Below, one piece after another: positions 949 through 12,896 of a stretch of 12,896 nucleotides of DNA; position 1 is the stretch's first letter, and the number at the start of each line of letters is the position of its first letter. The notes beneath the pieces are model-generated. The model saw only the letters and a program-made list of their open reading frames with translations, was not told where the DNA came from and searched no databases. The position numbers were made by a program, and so were the translations under genes. Origin of the DNA: a virus (lineage: Duplodnaviria > Heunggongvirae > Uroviricota > Caudoviricetes); the IMG/VR virus record IMGVR_UViG_2700989170_000001, positions 1 to 12,896 of that record, one strand, 5' to 3'.

Positions 949-1133
949 CGTCTTCCCCTCTTGCCCTGTTTGACCATCAGGACGCCGTTAACTATTACGT
1001 GACGTTCGCCTTTGCTGTCTCGGTTGTACTTGAGCACTGTTCCTCTTGCACAGGAAAGCATCCTCGCCACTTCGGTCTGATTTCCTCGTGTCTGGATAAG
1101 AAGCTCTGGTATCGTTTGAATTGTGGAGTTCAT
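945..1133 (-). CDS. ninH: NinH-like small DNA-binding protein (62 aa)
   Basis: The motif TIPELLIQTRGNQTEVARMLSCARGTV...IVNGVLMV resembles lambda NinH as I recall it (KTIPDML...GNQTEVARRLKCSRGTV). Its start overlaps the rusA stop (ATGA) and it sits just upstream of Q, as in lambda. Confidence 0.7.
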   Translation of the reverse strand: MNSTIQTIPELLIQTRGNQTEVARMLSCARGTVLKYNRDSKGERHVIVNGVLMVKQGKRGRR

Positions 1134-1492
1134 ACGTTCTCCAGTTCGGTGATTTTTATTCCAAGCCGTCCGCCTGGTACTTTCACACCACGAATTACGC
1201 GAATGTCATCGAATTGCTCGTCGTCTTCCGCAAATCCGGCGTGGATAAGGGAGTCGAGTAAACCTTTCAGGATGTTGTCGAGGTCGCGGCGGCGGGAGTC
1301 TGGAACGTCTGCGATGACTTTGATGCGGAGTCGTGATTTGGTGAAAATGTCTAACTTGAGTTGGCGGATGATTTGCTGAACGTCTTTTCGGTATTTCTGG
1401 CCTTTATCGCTGATGTAGTATTGACTCCCCCGTCTTCGCCAGTAGGTGTTCACCGACGGCGGGTAAGGAAGCGCAAACTGATATTCGTTCAT
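1130..1492 (-). CDS. rusA: Holliday-junction resolvase RusA (120 aa)
   Basis: The protein is 120 aa with RusA-like features (LPYPPSVNTYW, DVPDSRRRDLDNILKGLLDSL, GGRLGIKITE). It lies in the nin region, abutting the YbcO-like gene. Confidence 0.85.
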   Translation of the reverse strand: MNEYQFALPYPPSVNTYWRRRGSQYYISDKGQKYRKDVQQIIRQLKLDIFTKSRLRIKVIADVPDSRRRDLDNILKGLLDSLIHAGFAEDDEQFDDIRVIRGVKVPGGRLGIKITELENV

Positions 1493-1779
1493 GGCTTAAT
1501 CTTCCCCTCCTTCAGCAGTATCGCCTGCGTCCTGATCACGCCTTCGAGGTGGTAAAGTCTGGCGTCTTTGTTGTCGAGATTATGGGTGCGTCGGTCGATC
1601 TCCGCGTGGCAGTCACTACAAGCCCATGCGCCGATCAGGTCGTCAGGCTTCATTCCCGTTCCGCAAATTCCAGCCATCCGGTAATGTGCCAGAACTGTAG
1701 TTTCAGGATTGCCATTGCATACGCCGTAAATACGTACCTGGCATTCTCTGCCGCGTGCTTCTTTGCGTAGATTAGCCAT
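1489..1779 (-). CDS. YbcO/NinX-like Cys-rich protein (DUF1364-type, putative nuclease, 96 aa)
   Basis: The motifs ARGRECQVRIYGVCNGNPETTVLAH and CSDCHAEIDRRTH match the YbcO-like family that precedes rusA in lambdoid prophages. A GGAGG RBS precedes the ATG, which overlaps the antirepressor stop (TAATG). Confidence 0.7.
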   Translation of the reverse strand: MANLRKEARGRECQVRIYGVCNGNPETTVLAHYRMAGICGTGMKPDDLIGAWACSDCHAEIDRRTHNLDNKDARLYHLEGVIRTQAILLKEGKIKP

Positions 1780-2501
1780 TAAGCAGCCTCCCCTGTTACT
1801 TTCAGCATTCCGTTATCGAGCAGCTTTCTGGTCAGCCACTGTTGACCACGCCCGGTGATTTTTGTGGTGAACGATATCTGTATTCCGTGATTTGTGTTGA
1901 CCGCTGTTTCTTTCACTGTGAAATAGCCGCGATCCATATATTCCTGCATTGGCACATTGCGCCGGGAACCTGAAGCAATAAGGATTTTGTGATCACGCAT
2001 CCACGCAAACAGTTTGTTTTGACCAATACCAACAACCTTTGCAAAGTTTCCAATCAAAATTCCGCTGGCCTCGCCAACGCGATCGGCAAACTCAACTTTA
2101 GGTGCGGCAATTGCGAGCTGGTTTTCCAGTTGCATTTTCTGCTCAGCAAGATCAGCAGCAAGGCGCAACGCTTCTGGTAGCGTTTTTGGGATATTAACCG
2201 CAGTTTCTTCAAGCTCTCGCCAACGGTCAACAAGACGAGCGGTGAATTCCGGCGACAACTGGGCTACAACGACAATACTGTCTCGCTTTCCTTGTTCGCC
2301 TTCGAAGACGTAATGCTCGTACTGAACACTGAACCCTAAGTTATTGATTCTTTCGGAAACCTCAATTTGAGGAAGCCGGATAACACCATTTTTAGCCAGC
2401 GTTTCGATGGTACGTTTCACATTGTCATGACGCTTACCCACCAACTCAGCGATTTCAATGCTTGTCATTTTGATGGCATTGCCATTTATTAACTCATTCA
2501 T
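1779..2501 (-). CDS. Phage antirepressor / regulatory protein (Rha-like N-terminus, KilA-C/ANT-like C-terminus, 240 aa)
   Basis: The N-terminus (MTSIEIAELVGKRHDNVKRTIETL) is Rha-family-like and the C-terminus (GNFAKVVGIGQNKLFAWMRDHKILIASGSRRNVPMQEYMDRGYF) is ANT/KilA-C-like. An SD GAGGAA lies 7 nt upstream. It is inserted between ninF and the YbcO-like gene. Confidence 0.7.
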   Translation of the reverse strand: MNELINGNAIKMTSIEIAELVGKRHDNVKRTIETLAKNGVIRLPQIEVSERINNLGFSVQYEHYVFEGEQGKRDSIVVVAQLSPEFTARLVDRWRELEETAVNIPKTLPEALRLAADLAEQKMQLENQLAIAAPKVEFADRVGEASGILIGNFAKVVGIGQNKLFAWMRDHKILIASGSRRNVPMQEYMDRGYFTVKETAVNTNHGIQISFTTKITGRGQQWLTRKLLDNGMLKVTGEAA

Positions 2502-2837: not shown

Positions 2838-2977
2838 ACGTCCTCCTTTTCCTGCGGTAGTGGTAAAACTCCTGTTGGTGTTCTTTCACACCGGAGACAC
2901 CATCGATTCCAGTAAGGTTGATTTGGTCGGAAGCGGTTATCTTCTTTGCATTCACCGCACCGATAACATCGCATCAT
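2804..2977 (-). CDS. ninD: NinD-like small zinc-finger protein (57 aa)
   Basis: The sequence [14 protein letters not shown]...WCLRCERTP has two CxxC pairs. Its ATG at 2977-2975 overlaps the ninB TGA (ATGA). Its size and position match lambda ninD; the family assignment is from memory. Confidence 0.5.
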
Positions 2978-3414
2978 GCAGCCCGATCTCCCCATCGCGC
3001 TTTCCATTCGAGAGCCAGTCGCGCTTCGTCTGACCACTTAACGCCACGCTCTGTACCGAATGCCTGTATAAGCTCTAATAGCTCCGCAAATTCGCTTACA
3101 CGCATCCTGCTGGTTGACTGGCCTATTACCACAAAGCCATTCCCGGCAAGGTTAGGAACAACGTCCTGCTGCTTTAATGCTGCGGTAAACACACACTTCC
3201 AGCTTTCTGCATCCAGCCAGCGACCATGCCATTCAACCTGACGCGAAACGTCACCAAGGCAAGCCCAAAGCTTCCGATTTTGGTCTAAGCTGCGGTTGCG
3301 CTCCTGAATGGTTACTACGATTGGTTTGGTTGGGTCTGGAAGAATTTGCTGTACCGCGTGAATAGCGTTTTGCTGATGTGCTGGGGATCGAATTTCAAAG
3401 GTTAGTTTTTTCAT
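2974..3414 (-). CDS. ninB: Recombination protein NinB (Orf family, 146 aa)
   Basis: The 146-aa product ([34 protein letters not shown]...) appears essentially identical to lambda NinB as I recall it. Confidence 0.9.
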
Positions 3415-3607: not shown

Positions 3608-3630
3608 CAGGATCCCCCTCGTTCTTAATC

Positions 3631-3662
3631 CAATAAAAAAGGGCTACTGTGTAAATAGCCCC
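3631..3662 (-). terminator. Intrinsic terminator downstream of the helicase gene (tR2-like position)
   Basis: Minus-strand stem GGGCUA/UAGCCC (plus 3641-3646 and 3656-3661) with a 9-nt loop, followed by UUUUUUAUU (plus 3631-3640). It lies between the helicase stop and the next ORF. Confidence 0.5.
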
Positions 3663-3691
3663 TGTTATTAGCTCAGTGATGTAGATGGTCA

Positions 3692-5128
3692 TCAGAATCC
3701 TCCTTTCTTCTTGGACTGCGGCTCCTCGCGTTCACGGCGGCGCATTTCAGCAGACTGTTGGTCTGTGTCATAAATAGCGCCATTTGCCTGAATGCAATAC
3801 ACCGTGCCGGTATTGCCATGACGATTGAGACGAAGGATTAGTTCGGTTTCACCAGGTGGAACACTGTCATCAAAAGCACCTTCACGATGGATCCCCACCC
3901 AATAATCGCAATCCTGTTCAATCTGCCCTGTATCTCGTGAGTCACTTGGTAATGGGCGTTTATTGGTTCGGCTTTCCAGTGCGCGGTTAAGCTGCGTCAG
4001 AAGCACAACAACGCAATCAAGCTCTTTGGCAAGGTTCTTCAGTCCTTTGGTGATCATGCCGTAAGCAAGGTCGTTGCGATCGGCCTTCTCAGCGGTCATT
4101 AGTGTCAGGTAATCGACCAGAATCATGCCAACACATCCTTTTTCTCGCTTGATTCGACGGCTTTCGCTGACGATTTGAGCCAGAGATAATCCCGGCGTGT
4201 CGTCGATGTAAAGCAGGTCGATTTCACTCAAACGATTAGCTGTTTCGATCGCCCTGTTGAAGTCACCATCGTAATCACCCTGATAGCCGTCATCAGCGTC
4301 ATTTGTCGCCGGAAGGTAAAAAATATTCGGGTTAACACCAGACTTCTGCCCTACCAGTTTTTCCAGTATCTGGTCTCCTGGCATTTCAAGGCTGAACATC
4401 AGAGCGGGCTTTTTCTCATGCACTGCGCAGTTGATTGCCATCTGGCTGTATAGCGTCGTTTTCCCCATCTTAGGGCGAGCGCCAATGACAAACAGAGAGC
4501 CTTTCACCAGACCTTTCGGTGACAGCATCCTGTCCAGCGATGGGATCCCTGTGCTCATTCCCCGTTGTTCGCCTGATGGGTCAAATCGCTTCTCAAGGTC
4601 GCTAACCCAGTCTTCCATGACCTCACCAAATGAGCGAAGTCCGCGACGCGATCCGGTTTTTGCATGGTCTGTCAGTTGCGTGAAAATCGCCTGAATAGCT
4701 TCGTACTTCTGCGTTGCAGTCATTCCGTTGCGGGAATAGAGCAATTCCGTCGCTTCAGTCATGCGGTTGATGGCGTAGCGTTCCATTGCGGTTTCACGAA
4801 CCTGCATTGCATAGGCAACGATGTTTGCTGCGCTTGGCGTGTTCTTTGCGATCTCAGCGATATAAGCAAAACCGCCAACAGACACCGTTAACGATTTGCG
4901 CTCCAGTTCATCGAAAAGCGTCAGGCCATCTACTGGCTTTTGCTCCCGGTGCATTCTGGTTATTTCTTCGAAAAGAATTTTGTGTGGTCGGCTGTAAAAT
5001 GAATCAGGCTTCAGCATCGCCAGAACTTTCTGGACGCGCTCACTGCTGTCATCATCCAGAAGCAATCCACCAATCACCGCCTGCTCTGCCTCGATGCTAT
5101 GGGGCGGCGCATAAAAATTATCGGTCAT
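3692..5128 (-). CDS. DnaB-family replicative helicase (P-loop; P22 gp12-like), about 478 aa
   Basis: The N-terminus has the DnaB-type motif PPHSIEAEQAVIGGLL; Walker A is GARPKMGKT; a Walker B-like ILVDYLTLM follows. The ATG at 5128 has SD GAGGGTG upstream; the ORF-track start at 5143 is a GTG. The start overlaps the stop of the O-like gene by 11 nt. Confidence 0.9.
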   Translation of the reverse strand: MTDNFYAPPHSIEAEQAVIGGLLLDDDSSERVQKVLAMLKPDSFYSRPHKILFEEITRMHREQKPVDGLTLFDELERKSLTVSVGGFAYIAEIAKNTPSAANIVAYAMQVRETAMERYAINRMTEATELLYSRNGMTATQKYEAIQAIFTQLTDHAKTGSRRGLRSFGEVMEDWVSDLEKRFDPSGEQRGMSTGIPSLDRMLSPKGLVKGSLFVIGARPKMGKTTLYSQMAINCAVHEKKPALMFSLEMPGDQILEKLVGQKSGVNPNIFYLPATNDADDGYQGDYDGDFNRAIETANRLSEIDLLYIDDTPGLSLAQIVSESRRIKREKGCVGMILVDYLTLMTAEKADRNDLAYGMITKGLKNLAKELDCVVVLLTQLNRALESRTNKRPLPSDSRDTGQIEQDCDYWVGIHREGAFDDSVPPGETELILRLNRHGNTGTVYCIQANGAIYDTDQQSAEMRRREREEPQSKKKGGF

Positions 5129-5879
5129 CGTGTTCACCCTCACGAACTTTCAGGTAGGTATTATCGTTAAGCAGGAAATCAAATCCCTTTTTGTGCCAGA
5201 CGGTTCCGCGTTGATGGTTTGGACGCTCTTCGAACATCCATCGGCAATTTTCGCCTACGTAGCTCAAATAATTTCTCCAGTCCTGCATCGTGAACCCATG
5301 CCCGTCAAGCTGGCGGGTTATCACTCCGGCTTTGCGCCAGAACGTTCGGATCTGGTTTTTACGCTTGTCATTCAGTGCGCGGATTCTTGGCGCTTCAGGA
5401 AGGATTTCGTGGTAAGCATCGACAACATCCTGACAGCTAACGGAAGGTTTTTTCTTGTCAGACTTTTTGTCTGCTGTGGCACTCTCTAATACGTCAGTAT
5501 TAGAGATATTATTTATATTATTGTTTATGGACAACCGTTGGACAACCGTTGGACAATTTTTTGCCTGAAAATCGTCATATTTAACGATTGTAAACAGGCT
5601 AAATTTCTTCCCCATCGAGCAAATATTAAGCATCCCTTTCGACTCAAAAGTCCGTAATAAGCTCCGAACTTTGTTGTCTGGAATGAATGTTTCTCTGACC
5701 AGCGACGGGCGTCCAGTTATCATCTGACCGCGATCAACAGTTATCGGACCGATATCCGTATTGACGACAGTAGATTCGTGATTAGCCTTGAGGATTAAGT
5801 GAAGCCAAAGATGTACTGCCTGAGAGTCCTTATAGAGCCTGCTGTCCATAAACTGGCGGTGTATAGAGACATACCCCAT
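5118..5879 (-). CDS. Replication initiation protein (O-like organiser, with internal iterons), about 253 aa
   Basis: The ORF sits immediately upstream of, and is coupled to, the helicase. It contains direct repeats and an AT-rich tract, like ori within lambda O. The favoured start is the ATG at 5879 (MGYVSIH...), which has AGGAGG 8 nt upstream; the ORF-track start at 5942 has no comparable RBS. Confidence 0.75.
   Translation of the reverse strand: MGYVSIHRQFMDSRLYKDSQAVHLWLHLILKANHESTVVNTDIGPITVDRGQMITGRPSLVRETFIPDNKVRSLLRTFESKGMLNICSMGKKFSLFTIVKYDDFQAKNCPTVVQRLSINNNINNISNTDVLESATADKKSDKKKPSVSCQDVVDAYHEILPEAPRIRALNDKRKNQIRTFWRKAGVITRQLDGHGFTMQDWRNYLSYVGENCRWMFEERPNHQRGTVWHKKGFDFLLNDNTYLKVREGEHDDR
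5528..5556. repeat. Iteron-like direct repeats (probable replication origin) inside the O-like gene
   Basis: GGACAACCGTT occurs twice in tandem, followed by a partial third copy GGACAA and then TTTTTT. The upstream flank (5498-5527) is AT-rich. This matches the lambda arrangement of iterons plus an AT-rich region within the initiator gene. Confidence 0.6.
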
Positions 5880-5928
5880 ACTGGATGCCTCCTGATGTTG
5901 TACAGGGTTATGCCTGTAATCAGCTAAC

Positions 5929-6090
5929 TTAACGACGCCCATGTTTCACTCCTGCTTTGGCTAGTCTGTAAACACCAACAAGGCGCTCTGCGAACGCCCT
6001 GTTATTTGCTGCGGCTACCACTAATCCCTCAGGTGAATCAGGGTGTCGAATCTCTTCTTTTTCCTGGTATTTCTTACGACGTTTTGTCAT
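5929..6090 (-). CDS. Hypothetical small basic protein (53 aa) between cII and the replication gene
   Basis: I translated this by hand: MTKRRKKYQEKEEIRHPDSPEGLVVAAANNRAFAERLVGVYRLAKAGVKHGRR. AGGAG lies 5 nt upstream of the ATG. It is below the ORF-track size cutoff. It occupies the position where lambda O begins and overlaps the OOP promoter on the other strand. Confidence 0.35.
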   Translation of the reverse strand: MTKRRKKYQEKEEIRHPDSPEGLVVAAANNRAFAERLVGVYRLAKAGVKHGRR

Positions 6091-6770: not shown

Positions 6771-6849
6771 ATAATACGATATGTACTTTTGGAATGCAAA
6801 CAAAAAATACATCTTGTGCATGGATGGTTTTAGTACAGAGCGTAATAAT
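6771..6849. promoter_or_regulatory. Right operator/promoter region (OR with PR; PRM not located)
   Basis: PR candidate on the minus strand: -35 TTGCAT (plus 6794-6799), 17-bp spacer, -10 TATTAT (plus 6771-6776). Operator-like sites are TACGATATGTACTTT (6775-6789) and TTTAGTACAGAGCGTA (6829-6844), sharing the AGTACA-N3-CGTA core also seen in OL. Confidence 0.5.
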
Positions 6850-6861
6850 AAGGATATGAAG

Positions 6862-7515
6862 ATGAAATGGTATGAACTGGCTAGATCCAGAATGAAAGAA
6901 CTCGGCATAACTCAAGAGAAGTTAGCTGAAGAGCTTGGTATGACGCAGGGTGGAATTGGTCACTGGTTGCGCGGATCTCGTCATCCATCTCTTGACGAGA
7001 TTGGTGTGGTGTTTAAATACCTTGGTATTGATAACGTCTCATTCAACCACGACGGTACATTTTCACCTGTTGGCGAATACTCATCTGCCCCCGTTAAAAA
7101 ACAATATGAGTACCCTGTTTTTTCTCATGTTCAGGCCGGGATGTTCTCGCCTGAGCTTAGAACCTTTACCAAAGGTGATGCGGAGAGATGGGTCAGCACA
7201 ACCAAAAAAGCCAGTGATTGTGCGTTTTGGCTTGAAGTTGAAGGTAATTCCATGACCGCACCAACAGGATCCAAGCCAAGCTTTCCTGACGGGATGTTAA
7301 TTCTCGTTGACCCTGAGCAGGCTGTTGAGCCAGGTGATTTCTGCATAGCCAGACTTGGTGGTGACGAGTTTACCTTCAAGAAACTGATCAGGGATAGCGG
7401 TCAGGTGTTCCTACAACCACTAAACCCGCAATATCCAATGATCCCATGCAATGATAGCTGTTCCGTAGTAGGGAAAGTTATCGCCAGCCAGTGGCCTGAA
7501 GAGACATTTAGTTAA
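6862..7515 (+). CDS. cI: CI-type prophage repressor (N-terminal HTH, C-terminal S24/LexA-like autopeptidase), about 217 aa
   Basis: The HTH is [23 protein letters not shown]. There is an Ala-Gly site (VQAGMF), a GNSMTAP serine motif and a downstream FKKL lysine motif. The ATG at 6862 has AAGGA 7 nt upstream (6856 is an alternative). The ORF-track start at 6781 would lie inside the operator region. Confidence 0.85.
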
Positions 7516-7749: not shown

Positions 7750-7868
7750 AAACAGATACCAAACGAGATGGGTTTGGCGGTGATGTGAATTGCAGCTGCA
7801 ACGACAGCAACCAGAAGATCAGCACCTGGCGCATCACCACCAAAGCCATTTCACATGAGGAAAATATC

Positions 7869-8177
7869 ATGACGGTAATCGTGTACGGGAAATCAACATT
7901 TGCAGGAAATGCCAAAACTCGCCGTCATGAGCGGCGCAGAAAGCTGGCTATCGAGCGTGATGCTATATGCAACATCATCGATTCGATCTTCGGCACAGAC
8001 AGTGAGGAACCTGTTCAGGAAGCCCCGAGAAAACGTTTAATCCTTTCTGAAAAAGCAATATCACTCGGCAACATTCGTAACCAAAATACCGACGAATGCA
8101 GTGGAAGTATTTGCCTGCCAAACGTAGCTCTTTACGCGGCAGGCTACCGGAAATCAAAACAACTGACAGCCAGGTAA
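7869..8177 (+). CDS. N: Antitermination protein N (P22 gp24-like, arginine-rich motif), 102 aa
   Basis: The N-terminus MTVIVYGKSTFAGNAKTRRHERRRKLAIER carries the arginine-rich RNA-binding motif and resembles P22 N as I recall it. The ATG at 7869 has GAGGA upstream. The ORF-track start at 7785 would overlap nutL. Confidence 0.8.
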   Translation: MTVIVYGKSTFAGNAKTRRHERRRKLAIERDAICNIIDSIFGTDSEEPVQEAPRKRLILSEKAISLGNIRNQNTDECSGSICLPNVALYAAGYRKSKQLTAR

Positions 8178-9032: not shown

Positions 9033-9136
9033 GTTTTACAGATAACTGGTCAGACGAAGAATTCATTCGTCAGATGAACAAAATGCTCAATCAGCACAAA
9101 GAACAGGAGAAAGATGATGATTCTGACTCTGAATGA
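9029..9136 (+). CDS. Candidate small ORF (35 aa) overlapping the cIII-like stop (kil-like position)
   Basis: Its ATG overlaps the cIII-like TGA (ATGA). The product is MSFTDNWSDEEFIRQMNKMLNQHKEQEKDDDSDSE. Its 3' end overlaps the start of the next ORF in another frame. Confidence 0.3.
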   Translation: MSFTDNWSDEEFIRQMNKMLNQHKEQEKDDDSDSE

Positions 9137-9425
9137 TAAGCGTGAAATATCGCAAATCATCGCAAGTTTTACCGATGATGATTACGAACGAATCAACAGT
9201 GAAGTTGATCGCCTCTGCAAACGTTGCGACCCAATAAGCGAAATGCTTCGCTCATATAAACCAGATGAACACACTAAGGACGCTATCGACTGGCTGGAAG
9301 ATGATGACTGTAACTATCAGGAAAAAGCCGCTGAATGGTTCTGGGATGCAATAACCGAAAGAGTTAAGGCTGAATATGCCTTCGCAATATTCAAACGCAG
9401 ACACATTTTTGGAGAAGCTGCATGA
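9114..9425 (+). CDS. Hypothetical acidic protein (103 aa) immediately upstream of the recombinase
   Basis: AGGAGAAAG lies upstream of the ATG, and its stop overlaps the RecT ATG (ATGA). By position it corresponds to lambda gam or P22 abc, but I see no sequence similarity to support that. Confidence 0.6.
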   Translation: MMILTLNDKREISQIIASFTDDDYERINSEVDRLCKRCDPISEMLRSYKPDEHTKDAIDWLEDDDCNYQEKAAEWFWDAITERVKAEYAFAIFKRRHIFGEAA

Positions 9426-10324
9426 GCAATATCGTTGAATTCGTTAAACAGCAGGAGCAGTTATTCTGCGGAGCATTGACTGAACAGACGGTGACATGGG
9501 CTAAGGAAAGCCAGTTTGCAATTCAGTATTTCCAGAAAAACGATTACCTGGCTAAAACAGCACTGGCAAATCCAACCAGCGCACAGAACGCCATCATCAA
9601 TGTTGCGGCGATCGGCATCACCTTAAACCCGGCCAGCAAACTGGCTTATCTGGTTCCTCGCGACGGCATGGTGTGCCTTGATATCAGTTACATGGGATTA
9701 CTTCATCTTGCGCAATCGACAGGATCAATTAAGTGGGGGCAATGCAAACTGGTGTACTCAAACGACACCTATGAATCAAATGGCCTTGATTCAGCACCAA
9801 CCCACAAATACAACGCATTTGGTGAGCGAGGCTCTATTGTTGGAGGTTATTGCACGGTTAAAACAGCAGATGGTGACTACCTGACTGAAGAAATGAGTCT
9901 GGCAGAAATTAAAGCTGTGGAAGCAACGAGCAAGGCAAAGAATGGACCGTGGAAAACATTCTGGGAAGAGATGGCGCGTAAAACAATAGTTAAACGCGCC
10001 AGCAAATACTGGCCTAAAGCCCAGCGACTGGATAATGCCATTCACCTGCTTAACGAAGATGAAGGTATGCATCAGGAACCAGTTATGCCGCACAAATCAG
10101 AGGAAGATATCCGCGAAGATGAACGGAAACGCCAGCAGGAAATAATGGATAAAGCACAACTTCTTTGCGATGAAATGGCTCAGGCAGAAAACATGGATGA
10201 TTTGAAGCGATATTTTGCAGAAGCATATCGCCTGACATCTGGAATGAAATTGCAGCAGAACGTACAAGCCATTTACATAGAATGCAAAGCGAAACTGGAG
10301 GTTGCCAGTGAGCAAACTGTATGA
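9422..10324 (+). CDS. RecT-family single-strand annealing protein (300 aa)
   Basis: The central region (AIINVAAIGITLNPASKLAYLVPRDG, GPWKTFWEEMARKTIVKRASKYWP) looks RecT-like. It sits in the early-left operon where lambdoid phages carry their recombinase. Confidence 0.75.
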   Translation: MSNIVEFVKQQEQLFCGALTEQTVTWAKESQFAIQYFQKNDYLAKTALANPTSAQNAIINVAAIGITLNPASKLAYLVPRDGMVCLDISYMGLLHLAQSTGSIKWGQCKLVYSNDTYESNGLDSAPTHKYNAFGERGSIVGGYCTVKTADGDYLTEEMSLAEIKAVEATSKAKNGPWKTFWEEMARKTIVKRASKYWPKAQRLDNAIHLLNEDEGMHQEPVMPHKSEEDIREDERKRQQEIMDKAQLLCDEMAQAENMDDLKRYFAEAYRLTSGMKLQQNVQAIYIECKAKLEVASEQTV

Positions 10325-10790
10325 AATAGCCAATGAATACGCAAAGCTGATGGATTCAGATTTAGAGCCAGAGATGATTGCTGACACAATAGAAGGCATG
10401 GAAGGAGAATTTACCGATAAAATAGAGCAACTTCTTGCCATTATTAAAAATGAATATGGTTATGCTGAACGCCTCAAGGACGAGGCAAAGTCACTAAATG
10501 AGCGAGCCGCAGTAATTCAAAATAAGATTGACAGCATTATGGCGTATATAGCGTCATCGCTTGAAATGGTTGGCAAGAAAAAGATTCGAGCAGGTATTCA
10601 CCAGGTAACAATCCGCAAACCGTCAGAAACTGTAGAAATCATCGACTCAAGCGCCCTTCCTCCTGAATACGTTGAGTTCGAAACGACAATTAAAGCCGAC
10701 AAACTGGCAATCAAACACCAACTAAAAGCAGGAATAAATATCCCCGGTGCTCAACTCAAAGTTGGGAAACCTTCACTTCTTATCAAATAA
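10308..10790 (+). CDS. Gp157-like protein (recombination-module accessory), about 160 aa
   Basis: The protein starts MSKLYEIANEYAKL and contains ADTIEGMEGEFTDK and INIPGAQL, which fits the Gp157 family commonly found next to phage annealases. The GTG at 10308 has GGAG 7 nt upstream and lies in the last codons of RecT. The ORF-track TTG at 10302 is an alternative. Confidence 0.6.
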   Translation: MSKLYEIANEYAKLMDSDLEPEMIADTIEGMEGEFTDKIEQLLAIIKNEYGYAERLKDEAKSLNERAAVIQNKIDSIMAYIASSLEMVGKKKIRAGIHQVTIRKPSETVEIIDSSALPPEYVEFETTIKADKLAIKHQLKAGINIPGAQLKVGKPSLLIK

Positions 10791-10801
10791 CGGTATCGCC
10801 T

Positions 10802-11116
10802 ATGAAAAAGACTCCATGGGAGAAATGGGAAGTCGATTTCTTGCGCGAGGTAGCGGCGACAATGCCAGTTGAAGTTATCGCAGAAAAACTGGAAAGGACT
10901 GAAAAAGCAGTAATGGCGAAAGCAACAAGGATTGGCGCTGACATTGTTAGCCGACTTCGTGGAAGACGATGGACAAGAGCCGAAGTATCACTTTTCGGTA
11001 AGTTCTCCGCAGAAGAAATAGCAATTGCAACCTGCCGCTCAATTTATTCAGTAAGAGCTATGCGATACAAGCTAAAAAAACTCGATGAAGAAAGAGCAGG
11101 CATACGAATAAATTAA
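10802..11116 (+). CDS. Hypothetical protein (104 aa) with two internally similar helix-rich halves
   Basis: The two halves are alike ([25 protein letters not shown]... and [25 protein letters not shown]...), suggesting a tandem HTH-like domain. The RBS is weak. I recognise no family. Confidence 0.55.
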
Positions 11117-11132
11117 CAAAGAGGAATTTACC

Positions 11133-11300
11133 ATGAGAGGACTTGCATACAATCCCGGCATTCTTCCGGCAGAAATGATTATTCGCCAACGCGTAAAGCC
11201 AATGCCATCGAGAGAGGAATTGCTTAAGAGAAATTCTTTTCCATCAGTGAATCAAAACAAATATCTGAATGCGATGTGGCGTAAAGGAGGCAACCAGTGA
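11133..11300 (+). CDS. Hypothetical small protein (55 aa)
   Basis: GAGGA lies 7 nt upstream of the ATG at 11133. The stop overlaps the GTG start of the next gene (GTGA). It is below the ORF-track cutoff and was found by hand translation. Confidence 0.45.
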
Positions 11301-11869
11301 GCGAGATTAATTACCAGGCACTGCGTGAGGCCGCAGAGAAGGCTACGAAAGGTCAGTGGGCTGTTGAATTCGACGATGAGATTTACTCCACTGACGGCGT
11401 GAACCATGAGCAAATAGCTATGGTGTTCAGTGAAAACGAATCGCGTGATGCTGCTTTCATCGCCGCAGCCAATCCCGCTACCGTCTTGGCGCTGCTGGAT
11501 GAGCTGGAAAGAAACCAGCAATACATCAAATCCCGCGACCAGGAGAACGAGGAAATTGCGCTAACGGTAGGGAAGCTGCGCGTTGAGCTGGAAGCCGCAG
11601 AAGCGCTGAATAAACACTTGGAGTTAGCAATCCGAAAAGCTGATGGTTGTAGCGAGGCGTTAAGGAGAAAAACAGAAGCCGCAGAGAAGCGCATCGCTGA
11701 ACTGGAGGCGCGGGAGGTTGTGCTTCCGCAATGCTATAGCATGTTGCATCGCGTCGATTTTGACGAGCCTTACCACACTGAAATGGTTTACAGGCAGCAT
11801 CAGGTTCTTGAGGCACTGCACAACGCTGGAATAAACGTCACCGAAGCATGTAAAGGAGAGGCATCATGA
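11297..11869 (+). CDS. Ead/Ea22-like protein (190 aa)
   Basis: The N-terminus [18 protein letters not shown]...[21 protein letters not shown] is typical of the Ead/Ea22-like family of lambdoid early-left operons. The GTG start has AAGGAGG 7 nt upstream. Confidence 0.7.
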
Positions 11870-12540
11870 GCACTATCACAAGAGAATGGCTGCAGCAGGC
11901 TATCAACGATTATGAAAGCGTTCGTGATGAGCTTCCTTTCGGGCTTGATGATTACCAGGGGAATATCCTGGCTGCCCTGCGTATTGCACTGGCATCGCTG
12001 GAAGCAGAGCCTATTGGCGCATTCCACATTGCAGAACAGCAAGTTGACGGCACAAGTGACTACATCAAGGATGGGGAATGGCCTATTGATAATGGGATTA
12101 TTGAAGTCTACGCCGCTCCGCCAGTACCGGTAGTACCTGCTGCATTACCTGAGAACGACGATGAGGATGGGCATGACATTGATTATCTTGAGCCATCTGA
12201 AGTTTACGCGCTTGGGCGAACAGCTGGCTGGAACGCCTGCCGCGCCGCCATGCTTCAGGGTAAATCCGAACAACCACAAAACGCACAACAAAATATTCCG
12301 GAAAATATTCCCGGTGGCAACTCTCCGGTAACTCCTGATGGTTGGATAAGCTGTAGTGATCGAATGCCGGAAGACACCAAAATGTTACTGGCATTTAGTC
12401 AAGGTGAAATCGTGGCCGCATATTGGAACTGGGTTGCAAATCCAATTGATTACAAAAAATATAGAGCTTTCACGTATTTATCAGGATATATCTTGGATGA
12501 CGTAACTCACTGGATGCCGCTACCAGAGCCTCCACTTTGA
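11866..12540 (+). CDS. DUF551-like prophage protein (224 aa)
   Basis: The C-terminus DGWISCSDRMPE...THWMPLPEPP looks like the DUF551 domain. The ATG overlaps the upstream stop (ATGA). The middle is acidic and Pro-rich. Confidence 0.65.
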   Translation: MSTITREWLQQAINDYESVRDELPFGLDDYQGNILAALRIALASLEAEPIGAFHIAEQQVDGTSDYIKDGEWPIDNGIIEVYAAPPVPVVPAALPENDDEDGHDIDYLEPSEVYALGRTAGWNACRAAMLQGKSEQPQNAQQNIPENIPGGNSPVTPDGWISCSDRMPEDTKMLLAFSQGEIVAAYWNWVANPIDYKKYRAFTYLSGYILDDVTHWMPLPEPPL

Positions 12541-12636
12541 AAGCGAAGCTTATACATATCTTTTACATCAGCAATCTATTGTTAATCTCCAATCAATGTT
12601 ACGTTGTCATCTCACTCATGCTTTGGAGGTAGTGAT

Positions 12637-12816
12637 ATGTCTTGTCCAAAATGCGGTTCTGGAAATATTGCAAAAGAAAAAACAATGCGTGGATGGTCTG
12701 GTGATTATGTGTGCTGCGATTGCGGATACAACGACTCTAAAGACGCATTTGGAGAGCGTGGTAAAAACGAGTTTGTCAAAATTAATAAAGAACGCGAAGG
12801 CAACGAAAAAAGCTAA
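12637..12816 (+). CDS. Small zinc-ribbon protein (59 aa; CPKCG ... CCDCG)
   Basis: GGAGG lies 7 nt upstream of the ATG at 12637. Two Cys pairs (CPKC and CCDC) are spaced for a zinc ribbon. The ORF-track start at 12604 has no RBS. Confidence 0.5.
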   Translation: MSCPKCGSGNIAKEKTMRGWSGDYVCCDCGYNDSKDAFGERGKNEFVKINKEREGNEKS

Positions 12817-12896
12817 TTTATTTATTCATATATGAAAACAATGTAACCAATATTCGATTTGAAGAACTGAAAGAACACCAAGCCGCCTGATGGCGG

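Follow-up and report, generated by a model that had tools for sequence, protein, structure and literature searches.

Phage P22 is the classic case of a phage recombination (Rec) module that works without a nuclease. A catalogue of lambdoid Rec modules was published by Zheng, Casjens, Davidson, Amundsen and Smith (Zheng et al. 2025, Genome Res 35:1767), and it counts 84 of 246 lambdoid Rec modules as lacking a nuclease, assigns 46 phages to the 'P22' class of its Table 1 and calls one- and two-gene modules 'somewhat suspect'. In the same catalogue phage HK140 is entered as SAP-4 (RecT-type) with a 'MuGam' anti-RecBCD function, no nuclease and no SSB. The Gam protein of phage Mu binds DNA ends and blocks RecBCD, according to papers cited via Zheng et al. 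(2025) and related literature, and sipho_gp157 and Mu Gam homologues fill the same slot beside the erf and sak4 annealase genes (Steczkiewicz et al. 2021). For proteins of the Gp157 family themselves, neither a biochemical characterisation nor an experimental paper was found in the literature searched.

In this contribution we describe a module of this kind in a stretch of viral DNA of 12,896 nucleotides, referred to below as the window. An earlier note on this DNA, made from the sequence, had pointed to a RecT-type annealase gene with a Gp157-like partner and no adjacent exonuclease.

The locus

The region is the Rec module of a lambdoid E. coli prophage and lies in an N-antiterminated early-left operon (Table 1). 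The CI repressor and N antiterminator genes located upstream, together with the synteny with phages HK140 and mEpX1, identify this operon as the pL operon. The four plus-strand ORFs considered in the earlier note are present in the ORF list of the window at the positions given there. Chi sites are absent from the window, where only 0.35 would be expected, so that their absence is uninformative.

The conserved core of the module consists of two translationally coupled genes, recT and gp157. The ORF list opens the second gene at TTG 10302, but its true start is almost certainly GTG 10308, because GGAGG is located 7 nt upstream of this codon and the resulting product has 160 residues, as in nearly all homologues. 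With this start gp157 overlaps recT by 17 nt, and the overlap, together with the Shine-Dalgarno sequence in front of the GTG codon, implies that the two genes are coupled in translation.

Table 1. Genes of the Rec module and its surroundings (positions in the window)
Feature	Position	Strand	Basis
CI repressor, LexA/S24-type	6781-7515	+	ORF list
N antiterminator	7785-8177	+	ORF list; N_peptide Pfam 1.5e-39
orf103, acidic 103-aa protein	9114..9425	+	PHROG 3486 (unknown function)
recT, RecT-family single-strand annealing protein, 300 aa	9422..10324	+	Pfam RecT, PHROG 148, PDB 7UB2
gp157, Sipho_Gp157 family, 160 aa	10308..10790 (ORF opens TTG 10302)	+	PF05565, PHROG 253
orf104, basic tandem-repeat protein, 104 aa	10802..11116	+	PHROG 323, Mu gp9 similarity
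DUF2737 small basic protein, 55 aa	11133..11300	+	Pfam DUF2737 E 9e-32
Ead/Ea22-like	11297-11869	+	Pfam + PHROG scans; RefSeq names in E41
DUF551 protein	11866-12540	+	Pfam + PHROG scans; RefSeq names in E41
Lar-like zinc-ribbon 'Eag' protein	12604-12816	+	Pfam + PHROG scans; RefSeq names in E41

The RecT-Gp157 pair

Both assignments on which the earlier note rested, RecT-like for the first protein and Gp157-like for the one that follows it, pass the curated Pfam thresholds. The first protein is a RecT-family annealase with predicted annealing activity: residues 31-214 score 115.7 bits with PF03837, for which the cut-off is 24 (E 2.5e-33), the protein also matches PHROG 148, 'RecT-like ssDNA annealing protein' (1.8e-91), and the PDB search relates it to the solved RecT structure 7UB2 (E 7e-5). 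The second matches Sipho_Gp157 (PF05565) over the whole model (positions 1-162 of 162) and scores 125 bits where 28.6 are required (E 3e-36); it also matches PHROG 253, 'Mu Gam-like end protection' (1.2e-52), and PF05565 is matched by each of its 94 aligned relatives. The AF2 model of Gp157 (pLDDT 95.9) contains a 68-residue helix, a β-hairpin and a small C-terminal domain.

The two genes travel together. RecT is encoded immediately 5' of Gp157 in 12 of 13 genome loci from Escherichia, Citrobacter, Enterobacter, Erwinia, Atlantibacter and Siccibacter, the sole exception being due to an IS3 insertion, and the pair is found again in metagenomic contigs at Gp157 identities of 33-49%. Its carriers include the plaque-forming phages HK140, mEpX1, Kapi1, Gally and Louie. 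In phage SEN22 the flanking genes orf103, orf104 and DUF2737 are kept and exactly RecT and Gp157 are swapped for a DUF3799 nuclease and a 189-aa ORF, which marks the mosaic boundaries of the pair. With 6907 representatives at E <= 1e-3 and thousands of clusters at 50% identity, the Gp157 family as a whole is very large, and the annealases that adjoin its members belong to four families (RecT, Rad52/Erf, Sak4) in Proteobacteria and Firmicutes. In two distant lineages Gp157 adjoins a PHROG 'exonuclease', and Gp157 is thus not tied to nuclease-less modules.

The RecT protein of the window has an annealase core of approximately residues 1-217 and an acidic C-terminal tail (residues 218-300) of the type associated with Gp157. 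The Rec protein of phi80 is 57% identical to it, in the core only. Used as a query, the tail retrieves those of distantly related RecTs that have Gp157 as partner (E 3e-8 and 7e-5), with 63-65% identity in the core, and none from RecTs that have Exo as partner and are just as distant in the core (50-60%). The type of tail thus appears to track the partner, Gp157 or Exo, which we regard as a small remaining lead, the tail type being partly confounded with RecT clade; one RecT of 251 aa that is partnered with Gp157 lacks the tail altogether.

Relationship of Gp157 to Mu Gam

The earlier note had left room for an unrecognised partner of RecT. The partner is in fact a recognised one, since the Gp157 family already carries the annotation 'Mu Gam-like end protection' in PHROG 253 and in the RefSeq record of HK140 gp40. 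Profile comparisons support the view that Gp157 is a remote homologue of Mu Gam. Aligned with hhalign to an 18-sequence Mu Gam profile, Gp157 gives E 5e-5 at 67% probability, with 114 columns in register and a score of 34.7, whereas shuffled profiles score 12.8 +/- 2.2 (maximum 20.2, n=150) and the reversed template 13.3. The C-terminal domain alone, which is not a coiled coil, scores 28.2 against a null of 10.5 +/- 2.2. Significance was reached once five divergent homologues had been added to the Mu Gam profile; the comparisons are weaker with the single Mu Gam sequence (E 0.011) and with 13 close homologues (E 0.003).

The match of Gp157 to Pfam Phage_Mu_Gam (PF07352) covers nearly the whole model but at 16.4 bits (E 0.009) lies under the gathering threshold of 28.3. 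Sub-threshold matches to the same model occur in 15 of the 94 family members (best 9e-5), among which other coiled-coil families reach similar levels. PHROG places real Mu Gam in a different family (491) from Gp157 (253), and a PDB sequence search with Gp157, as a single sequence or as a 94-sequence profile, returned just coiled-coil noise. Fold searches with the Gp157 model were uninformative: they gave no Ku or Mu Gam match, and the BFVD matches (Foldseek) were Gp157-family or unnamed proteins, none of them labelled Gam. The AF2 model of Mu Gam itself, built from a shallow alignment (pLDDT 74), had no BFVD matches and is too poor for a reciprocal fold test.

Search for an exonuclease

Scans with Pfam and PHROG detected no nuclease domain in any plus-strand ORF between positions 7785 and 12816, and no SSB domain in any of the window ORFs scanned, while the nucleases of SEN22, ENT47670 and Midgardsormr38, used as positive controls, were all detected. 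The earlier statement that the neighbouring ORFs include no exonuclease is thereby borne out. It also holds past the window edge, as judged by close relatives. From N to int, the complete operons of HK140, mEpX1 and the E. coli C4 prophage are free of annotated nucleases, and their unannotated ORFs have no nuclease domain. The closest relative at the right end of the window is E. coli E41 (98.5% identity over 11800-12896), and the only products that it encodes beyond the region matching the window end are a hypothetical protein of 114 aa, TorI/Xis and the integrase, none of them a nuclease. The locus is therefore not of the lambda Red or Rac RecET type, since neither a lambda Exo/YqaJ nor a RecE/DUF3799 gene is contiguous with the annealase gene.

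Small genes around the pair

The upstream gene, orf103, was missed by the earlier note; its stop codon overlaps the recT start (ATGA). Its product (pI 4.6) belongs to PHROG 3486, a family of unknown function (5.7e-59), has no match in Pfam or PDB and shows no similarity to GamL of phi80. The order orf103-RecT is found in all phage records except SEN22 and is conserved down to 38% identity; in ENT47670 and Midgardsormr38 the order is orf103-RecT-Exo. Conserved, acidic and located upstream at the place of lambda gam and phi80 gamL, orf103 is a possible accessory gene and a second small lead.

The downstream orf104 product is basic (pI 10) and is made of two tandem HTH-like repeats of about 45 residues each. 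The two similar halves noticed earlier give no alignment with each other by BLASTP, but their profiles match (hhalign 24.2 against a column-shuffled null of 10.2 +/- 2.4, maximum 17.7); the repeat is detectable only through family profiles and through homologues with three copies of the unit, which occur in Citrobacter and Enterobacter prophages. By sequence this tandem-repeat protein belongs to the family of Mu gp9: both match PHROG 323, 'transcriptional regulator, D5-like' (2.8e-20 for orf104, 5.2e-29 for Mu gp9), and a direct BLASTP comparison (5e-5) gives matches that cross between the halves. Of the earlier proposal that orf104 is a DNA-binding accessory of the module, the first part stands, in that the tandem-repeat protein probably binds DNA, and the second does not. 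Neither orf104 nor DUF2737 is module-specific, because both occur with other Rec modules and orf104 is missing from many RecT-Gp157 loci. It is kept in SEN22 beside a different cassette, and DUF2737, a gene often present in lambdoid early-left operons beside Rec modules of several types, also follows Erf/Abc2 in HK633 and Rad52/SSB/anti-RecBCD genes in E. coli E41.

Proposed mechanism and alternatives

We estimate at roughly 0.6 the probability that the module combines a RecT annealase with a Mu-Gam-like end protector and is, like that of P22, of the type with an annealase and an anti-RecBCD function and with neither a nuclease nor an SSB of its own. The analogy with Mu Gam makes it most likely that Gp157 forms dimers by way of its long helix and binds ends of double-stranded DNA, and it would shield phage DNA (injected genomes and rolling-circle tails) from RecBCD. 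Its role would then most likely be that of lambda Gam, not of lambda Exo, and its functional counterparts would be lambda Gam or P22 Abc2. RecT would anneal single-stranded DNA exposed at replication forks or gaps or made by host nucleases and helicases, a source that we infer. Resection is probably host-supplied or unnecessary; the reliance on host functions suggested earlier is the most reasonable reading. Against the proposed mechanism, an end-capping protein would also hinder the resection needed for end-initiated annealing, so that the supply of single-stranded DNA to RecT is a weak point of this reading.

A more specific version of this mechanism, which we consider doubtful but worth stating, is that the RecT tail of about 80 residues is a dedicated Gp157-interaction domain, comparable to the Exo-binding tail of Exo-partnered RecT and of Red-beta. 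End-bound Gp157 would then recruit RecT directly, and recombination would be coupled to end protection and independent of an exonuclease, with orf103 acting perhaps as a RecBCD inhibitor or a RecT cofactor.

It is unlikely, but conceivable, that Gp157 is not a passive end cap but an adaptor that, bound to the RecT tail, redirects a host nuclease, so that the host enzyme resects the DNA and hands single strands to RecT. There is a precedent in Abc2 of P22, which modifies RecBCD and redirects it. The adaptor would fit the co-variation of the tail type with the downstream partner and the location of Gp157 in the slot that is occupied by Exo in ENT47670, Midgardsormr38 and phi80. However, no sign of contact between Gp157 and a host nuclease was seen, its remote homology points to an end-binding protein, and the tail could bind host SSB instead; the confounding of tail type with clade and the tailless RecT partnered with Gp157 also weaken the argument from co-variation.

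Alternatively, the module could have decayed, with its exonuclease lost and recombination of double-stranded DNA no longer supported, and at most an oligonucleotide-type annealing left. The caution about small modules in Zheng et al. (2025) and the presence of the same RecT type together with Exo in phi80, ENT47670 and Midgardsormr38 would agree with such decay, which we nevertheless find very unlikely: the overlapping gene pair is intact and kept across at least six genera and in plaque-forming phages, and what occupies the Exo slot is a distinct gene of a very large family and no nuclease fragment.

It is highly improbable that Gp157 is a phage-resistance or superinfection-exclusion factor that lies beside recT by coincidence. 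The idea goes back to an old 'resistance protein' label in Pfam and UniProt, echoed by BFVD relatives named 'Resistance protein'; the description of the Pfam family has its origin in studies of S. thermophilus phage Sfi21. This reading is opposed by the consistent adjacency to annealases of four families in two phyla, the translational coupling to recT and the homology to Mu Gam. Hardly credible, finally, is a novel exonuclease or true nuclease partner hidden in orf103, orf104 or DUF2737, which was rejected despite their lack of known function and the tight coupling and conservation of orf103 with recT, because all three products are too small (55-104 aa) and have no nuclease motif or family match, orf104 consists of HTH-like repeats in tandem, orf103 is found together with a genuine Exo in ENT47670 and Midgardsormr38 and is thus no substitute for it, and the other two genes flank unrelated Rec modules.

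Implications

The result mainly confirms a published catalogue entry, and its practical interest is modest. It illustrates that lambdoid phages build their Rec modules from interchangeable parts and that a RecT-type annealase can do without its own exonuclease when it is paired with an anti-RecBCD function. If Gp157 proteins do cap DNA ends, a widely propagated annotation would be validated, and recombineering might gain a compact substitute for lambda Gam. A partner-specific RecT tail, if real, would help to explain the poor transfer of annealases between systems.

Comparison with known systems

The Rac prophage, like the window, encodes an annealase of the RecT family in an early-left operon of the lambdoid kind, but it pairs RecT with the 5'-3' exonuclease RecE and has no Gam-like protein, whereas the window has no RecE-like gene. 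The lambda Red genes (gam-bet-exo) and gamL-rec-exo of phi80 occupy the same operon position as the module described here, and both systems have a small gene 5' of the annealase gene, in the slot of orf103. Downstream of the annealase, lambda and phi80 encode a 5'-3' exonuclease where the window encodes Gp157, and the C-terminal tail of phi80 Rec is unrelated to that of the window RecT.

Mu Gam, a Ku-like inhibitor of host nucleases that binds ends of double-stranded DNA, and Gp157 are alike in size and in their layout, in which a small β/α domain comes after a long N-terminal helix, and in both genomes a gene of the orf104/gp9 HTH family adjoins the gam or gp157 gene. The two proteins belong to different Pfam families (PF07352 and PF05565). 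Mu Gam has no paired annealase, while Gp157 is paired with RecT and is a putative end-binding protein.

P22 (erf, arf, abc1, abc2) resembles the window in combining an annealase and an anti-RecBCD function without a phage exonuclease. The annealase is Erf in P22 and RecT in the window, Abc2 binds RecC whereas Gp157 would bind DNA ends, and the proteins of the two systems have no sequence relationship. The window is of the 'P22' functional type (SAP and anti-RecBCD, no nuclease, no SSB) provided that Gp157 is accepted as an anti-RecBCD protein of the MuGam type, as Zheng et al. (2025) do for HK140.

Contrary to what the earlier note had implied, the arrangement is not new, since the same module is present in HK140, catalogued in 2025 and described by Zheng et al. 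as a RecT-type SAP with MuGam and without a nuclease. HK140, like mEpX1, Gally and Kapi1, has the same order of orf103, RecT, Gp157, orf104 and DUF2737, at about 93% nucleotide identity to the window. The differences are slight: HK140 has one extra small ORF (DUF5405-like) between orf104 and DUF2737, and the downstream Ead, DUF551 and Eag genes of the window form a different mosaic.

The RecT-Gp157 Cassette and Its Surroundings

The window (12.9 kb) corresponds to the immunity and early region of a lambdoid E. coli prophage, in which the CI repressor and N genes are followed on the plus strand by the early-left operon, the usual home of the lambdoid Rec (homologous-recombination) module; on the minus strand lie cII, a replication-initiator gene and genes for a DnaB-type helicase, NinB, NinF, an antirepressor, YbcO, RusA, NinH and Q. 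An earlier note had described here a RecT annealase with a Gp157-like partner and no adjacent exonuclease. All four ORFs that it named are present, the RecT assignment holds (Pfam RecT, 115.7 bits, E 2.5e-33; also PHROG 148 and the solved RecT 7UB2), and the gene after recT encodes a full-length Sipho_Gp157 protein (E 3e-36). A GGAGG 7 nt upstream and the 160-aa length of nearly all homologues place its start almost certainly at GTG 10308 rather than TTG 10302, which would give a 17-nt overlap with recT.

Coordinates of features in the window and in comparison loci
Feature	Locus	Position	Strand	Basis or content
CI repressor, LexA/S24-type	window	6781-7515	+	ORF list
N antiterminator	window	7785-8177	+	Pfam N_peptide 1.5e-39
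orf103, acidic, 103 aa	window	9114-9425	+	PHROG 3486, unknown function
recT	window	9422-10324	+	Pfam RecT, PHROG 148, 7UB2
RecT C-terminal tail, residues 218-300	window	10073-10321	+	tail comparison
orf104, 104 aa, tandem HTH-like repeats	window	10802-11116	+	PHROG shared with Mu gp9
55-aa ORF, DUF2737	window	11133-11300	+	Pfam
nin region genes	window	1130-1779 and 2974-3414	-	RusA, YbcO, NinB
Integration beside sbcB	L003, E. coli C4	15866-17290
Replacement cassette	L004, SEN22	3613-5625		DUF3799, 189-aa ORF
HNH_3 gene	L006, Louie	4289-4756
HNH_3 copy	L009, Ca. Erwinia dacicola	5537-5998
Mu gp9	L007, Mu	1983-2282		orf104 family
Transposase replacing RecT	L016, Pseudenterobacter timonensis	4738-5942		HTH_Tnp_1, rve
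PHROG "exonuclease" gene beside gp157	L034	140-847		PHROG 7838
PHROG "exonuclease" gene beside gp157	L035	2777-3457		PHROG 7838

The claimed absence of an adjacent exonuclease is borne out: Pfam and PHROG reveal no nuclease domain in the plus-strand ORFs from N to the window end. The region beyond that end was judged from relatives. In E. coli E41, a 98.5% match over 11800-12896, the genes that come next encode a 114-aa hypothetical protein, TorI/Xis and the integrase, and the complete N-to-int operons of HK140, mEpX1 and the E. coli C4 prophage, all of which have the module, contain no annotated nuclease and no nuclease domain in their unannotated ORFs. Judged by these relatives, no exonuclease is expected just past the edge. 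The same scan detected its controls, namely the nucleases of SEN22 (DUF3799 PD-(D/E)XK), Cronobacter ENT47670 and Erwinia Midgardsormr38 (lambda-Exo-like PHROG 149) and Louie (HNH). The nin region, part of the other early operon, encodes RusA (a Holliday-junction resolvase), YbcO (a Pfam "putative nuclease") and NinB (a lambda Orf-type recombination mediator), and the prophage therefore has further recombination or nuclease functions, none of which is a resection exonuclease. The C4 prophage sits directly beside sbcB (exodeoxyribonuclease I), almost certainly an attachment-site coincidence.

Mosaic comparison defines the module as a two-gene cassette of RecT and Gp157. Salmonella phage SEN22 retains orf103 upstream and orf104 and DUF2737 downstream (proteins 91-94% identical), and exactly RecT and Gp157 are replaced by a DUF3799 PD-(D/E)XK nuclease and a 189-aa ORF (PHROG 11517, no Pfam match), a clean exchange from which the limits of the module can be read. 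In HK633 and E41 the same DUF2737 comes after an Erf or Rad52 module that includes Abc2, and across the genome loci orf103 and orf104 are gained and lost independently. On these comparisons orf104, proposed earlier as an accessory, and the 55-aa DUF2737 ORF are neighbours and not module-specific. RecT lies directly upstream of Gp157 in 12 of the 13 close-Gp157 genome loci (of 14) in which upstream DNA is present; in the exception, from P. timonensis, an IS3-family transposase replaces RecT, and the module is disrupted by an IS element. In phage Louie an HNH_3 endonuclease gene is inserted exactly between recT and gp157; a 93.5% identical copy occurs in Candidatus Erwinia dacicola and, by annotation, in phage Dewey. 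The gene resembles a mobile homing-type insertion more than a module component. Three contigs of 1.9-5 kb from assemblies labelled Actinomycetes, Micromonospora and Streptomyces (L011, L013, L018) encode RecT and Gp157 that share about 70-80% identity with the E. coli products and are most likely enterobacterial contamination.

The two similar halves attributed to orf104 are not recovered by direct BLASTP of the halves and appear at the family-profile level, where the half-profiles score 24.2 against each other (shuffled null 10.2 +/- 2.4, maximum 17.7). The repeat unit spans about 45 residues (W-x2-E...EIA...GRS-I-x-x-V-R), and the Citrobacter and Enterobacter homologues (L008, L014, L015) have three copies instead of two. 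orf104, with its tandem HTH-like repeats, shares a PHROG with Mu gp9, and matches between the two cross between halves. In Mu, gp9 immediately precedes gam; in Rhodobacter phage RcWaterboi, too, an HTH gene stands just before gam.

Gp157 Is Remotely Related to Mu Gam

The Gp157 family (6907 cluster representatives, E <= 1e-3) is labelled "Mu Gam-like end protection" in PHROGs and RefSeq. The Pfam Mu Gam match of Gp157 is below threshold (16.4 vs 28.3 bits), coiled-coil families match its members at rates comparable to Mu Gam, and actual Mu Gam is assigned to another PHROG. The very confident AF2 model (pLDDT 95.9) begins with a short helix and one of 68 residues, which are followed by a beta-hairpin, an extended segment and another short helix. 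Its only BFVD matches are Gp157 relatives, and its only PDB matches are generic coiled coils. In profile-profile comparison, each broadening of the Mu Gam profile raised the significance, from E 0.011 (1 sequence) through 0.003 (13) to 5e-5 (18), the last aligning 114 columns in register with a score of 34.7 (150 column shuffles, 12.8 +/- 2.2, maximum 20.2; reversed template, 13.3). With the C-terminal domain by itself, a part without coiled coil, the score is 28.2 (shuffled, 10.5 +/- 2.2). These profile comparisons lead to the conclusion that Gp157 is a genuine but remote Mu Gam relative. A literature search found no report testing Gp157 for DNA-end binding.

Steczkiewicz et al. 2021 (PMC8093625) observed that, in phages of Firmicutes, sipho_gp157 and Mu Gam homologues take the same place next to erf-ssb and sak4; they inferred an analogous function. 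Our sampling of distant relatives agrees with this observation: RecT-Gp157-SSB was found twice and RecT-Gp157 once, and an arrangement of Gp157 followed by a Rad52/Erf-like SSAP, SSB and HNH was found as well. In two distant metagenomic lineages a PHROG 7838 "exonuclease" gene lies directly upstream and overlaps the Gp157 start, with no recognisable annealase near the pair, and so the family is not limited to nuclease-less modules.

The RecT C-Terminal Tail

The core of phi80 Rec is 57% identical to the window RecT, and its last ~80 residues do not align. RecT tails are of two unrelated types, sorted by the downstream gene (Gp157 or a lambda-Exo-like nuclease), in a small sample where type is partly confounded with RecT clade. 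The window tail as query matches tails of Gp157-partnered RecTs (E 3e-8 and 7e-5) whose cores are just 63-65% identical and finds no match among Exo-partnered RecTs (cores 50-60% identical); the phi80 tail matches Exo-partnered tails only. A distant Gp157-partnered RecT of 251 aa (L036) has no tail. Because the link between tail type and partner persists where the cores are similarly diverged, the tail may be a partner-specific interaction domain. The pattern agrees with the "shuffling of partner interaction domains" mentioned, not analysed, by Zheng et al. 2025 (PMC12315714).

Proposed Mechanism and Comparison with Known Systems

In the best-supported reading, which rests on analogy, Gp157 would cap DNA ends and thereby play an anti-RecBCD role like that of lambda Gam, and RecT would supply annealing. 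The exonuclease step would then be either supplied by the host or bypassed, with RecT acting on single-stranded DNA at forks and gaps; the route of single-stranded DNA to RecT is inference only. The weak point of the capping reading is that an end cap should impede resection too.

The observation in the earlier note was correct and the host dependence it proposed is reasonable; the arrangement is ordinary and previously published. The anti-RecBCD protein of P22 is Abc2. P22 has long provided the precedent of an annealase that has no phage nuclease of its own (PMC12315714). Zheng, Casjens, Davidson, Amundsen and Smith (Genome Res 2025, PMC12315714) analysed the Rec modules of 325 lambdoid phages; 84 of 246 in Enterobacteriales are without a nuclease gene, and the P22-type class (anti-RecBCD and SAP only) has 46 members. 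The survey lists the HK140 module as a RecT-type SAP with a MuGam-type anti-RecBCD protein and neither nuclease nor SSB; this module is about 93% identical to that of the window. The leads beyond this catalogue are Gp157 biochemistry, the partner-tracking RecT tail and orf103.

The orf103 product shows no sequence similarity to GamL and no match to solved structures. Its stop overlaps the recT start (ATGA), and it accompanies RecT down to 38% identity. Its position is that of lambda gam and phi80 gamL, and the orf103-RecT-Exo trios of ENT47670 and Midgardsormr38 correspond in gene order to lambda gam-bet-exo and phi80 gamL-rec-exo.
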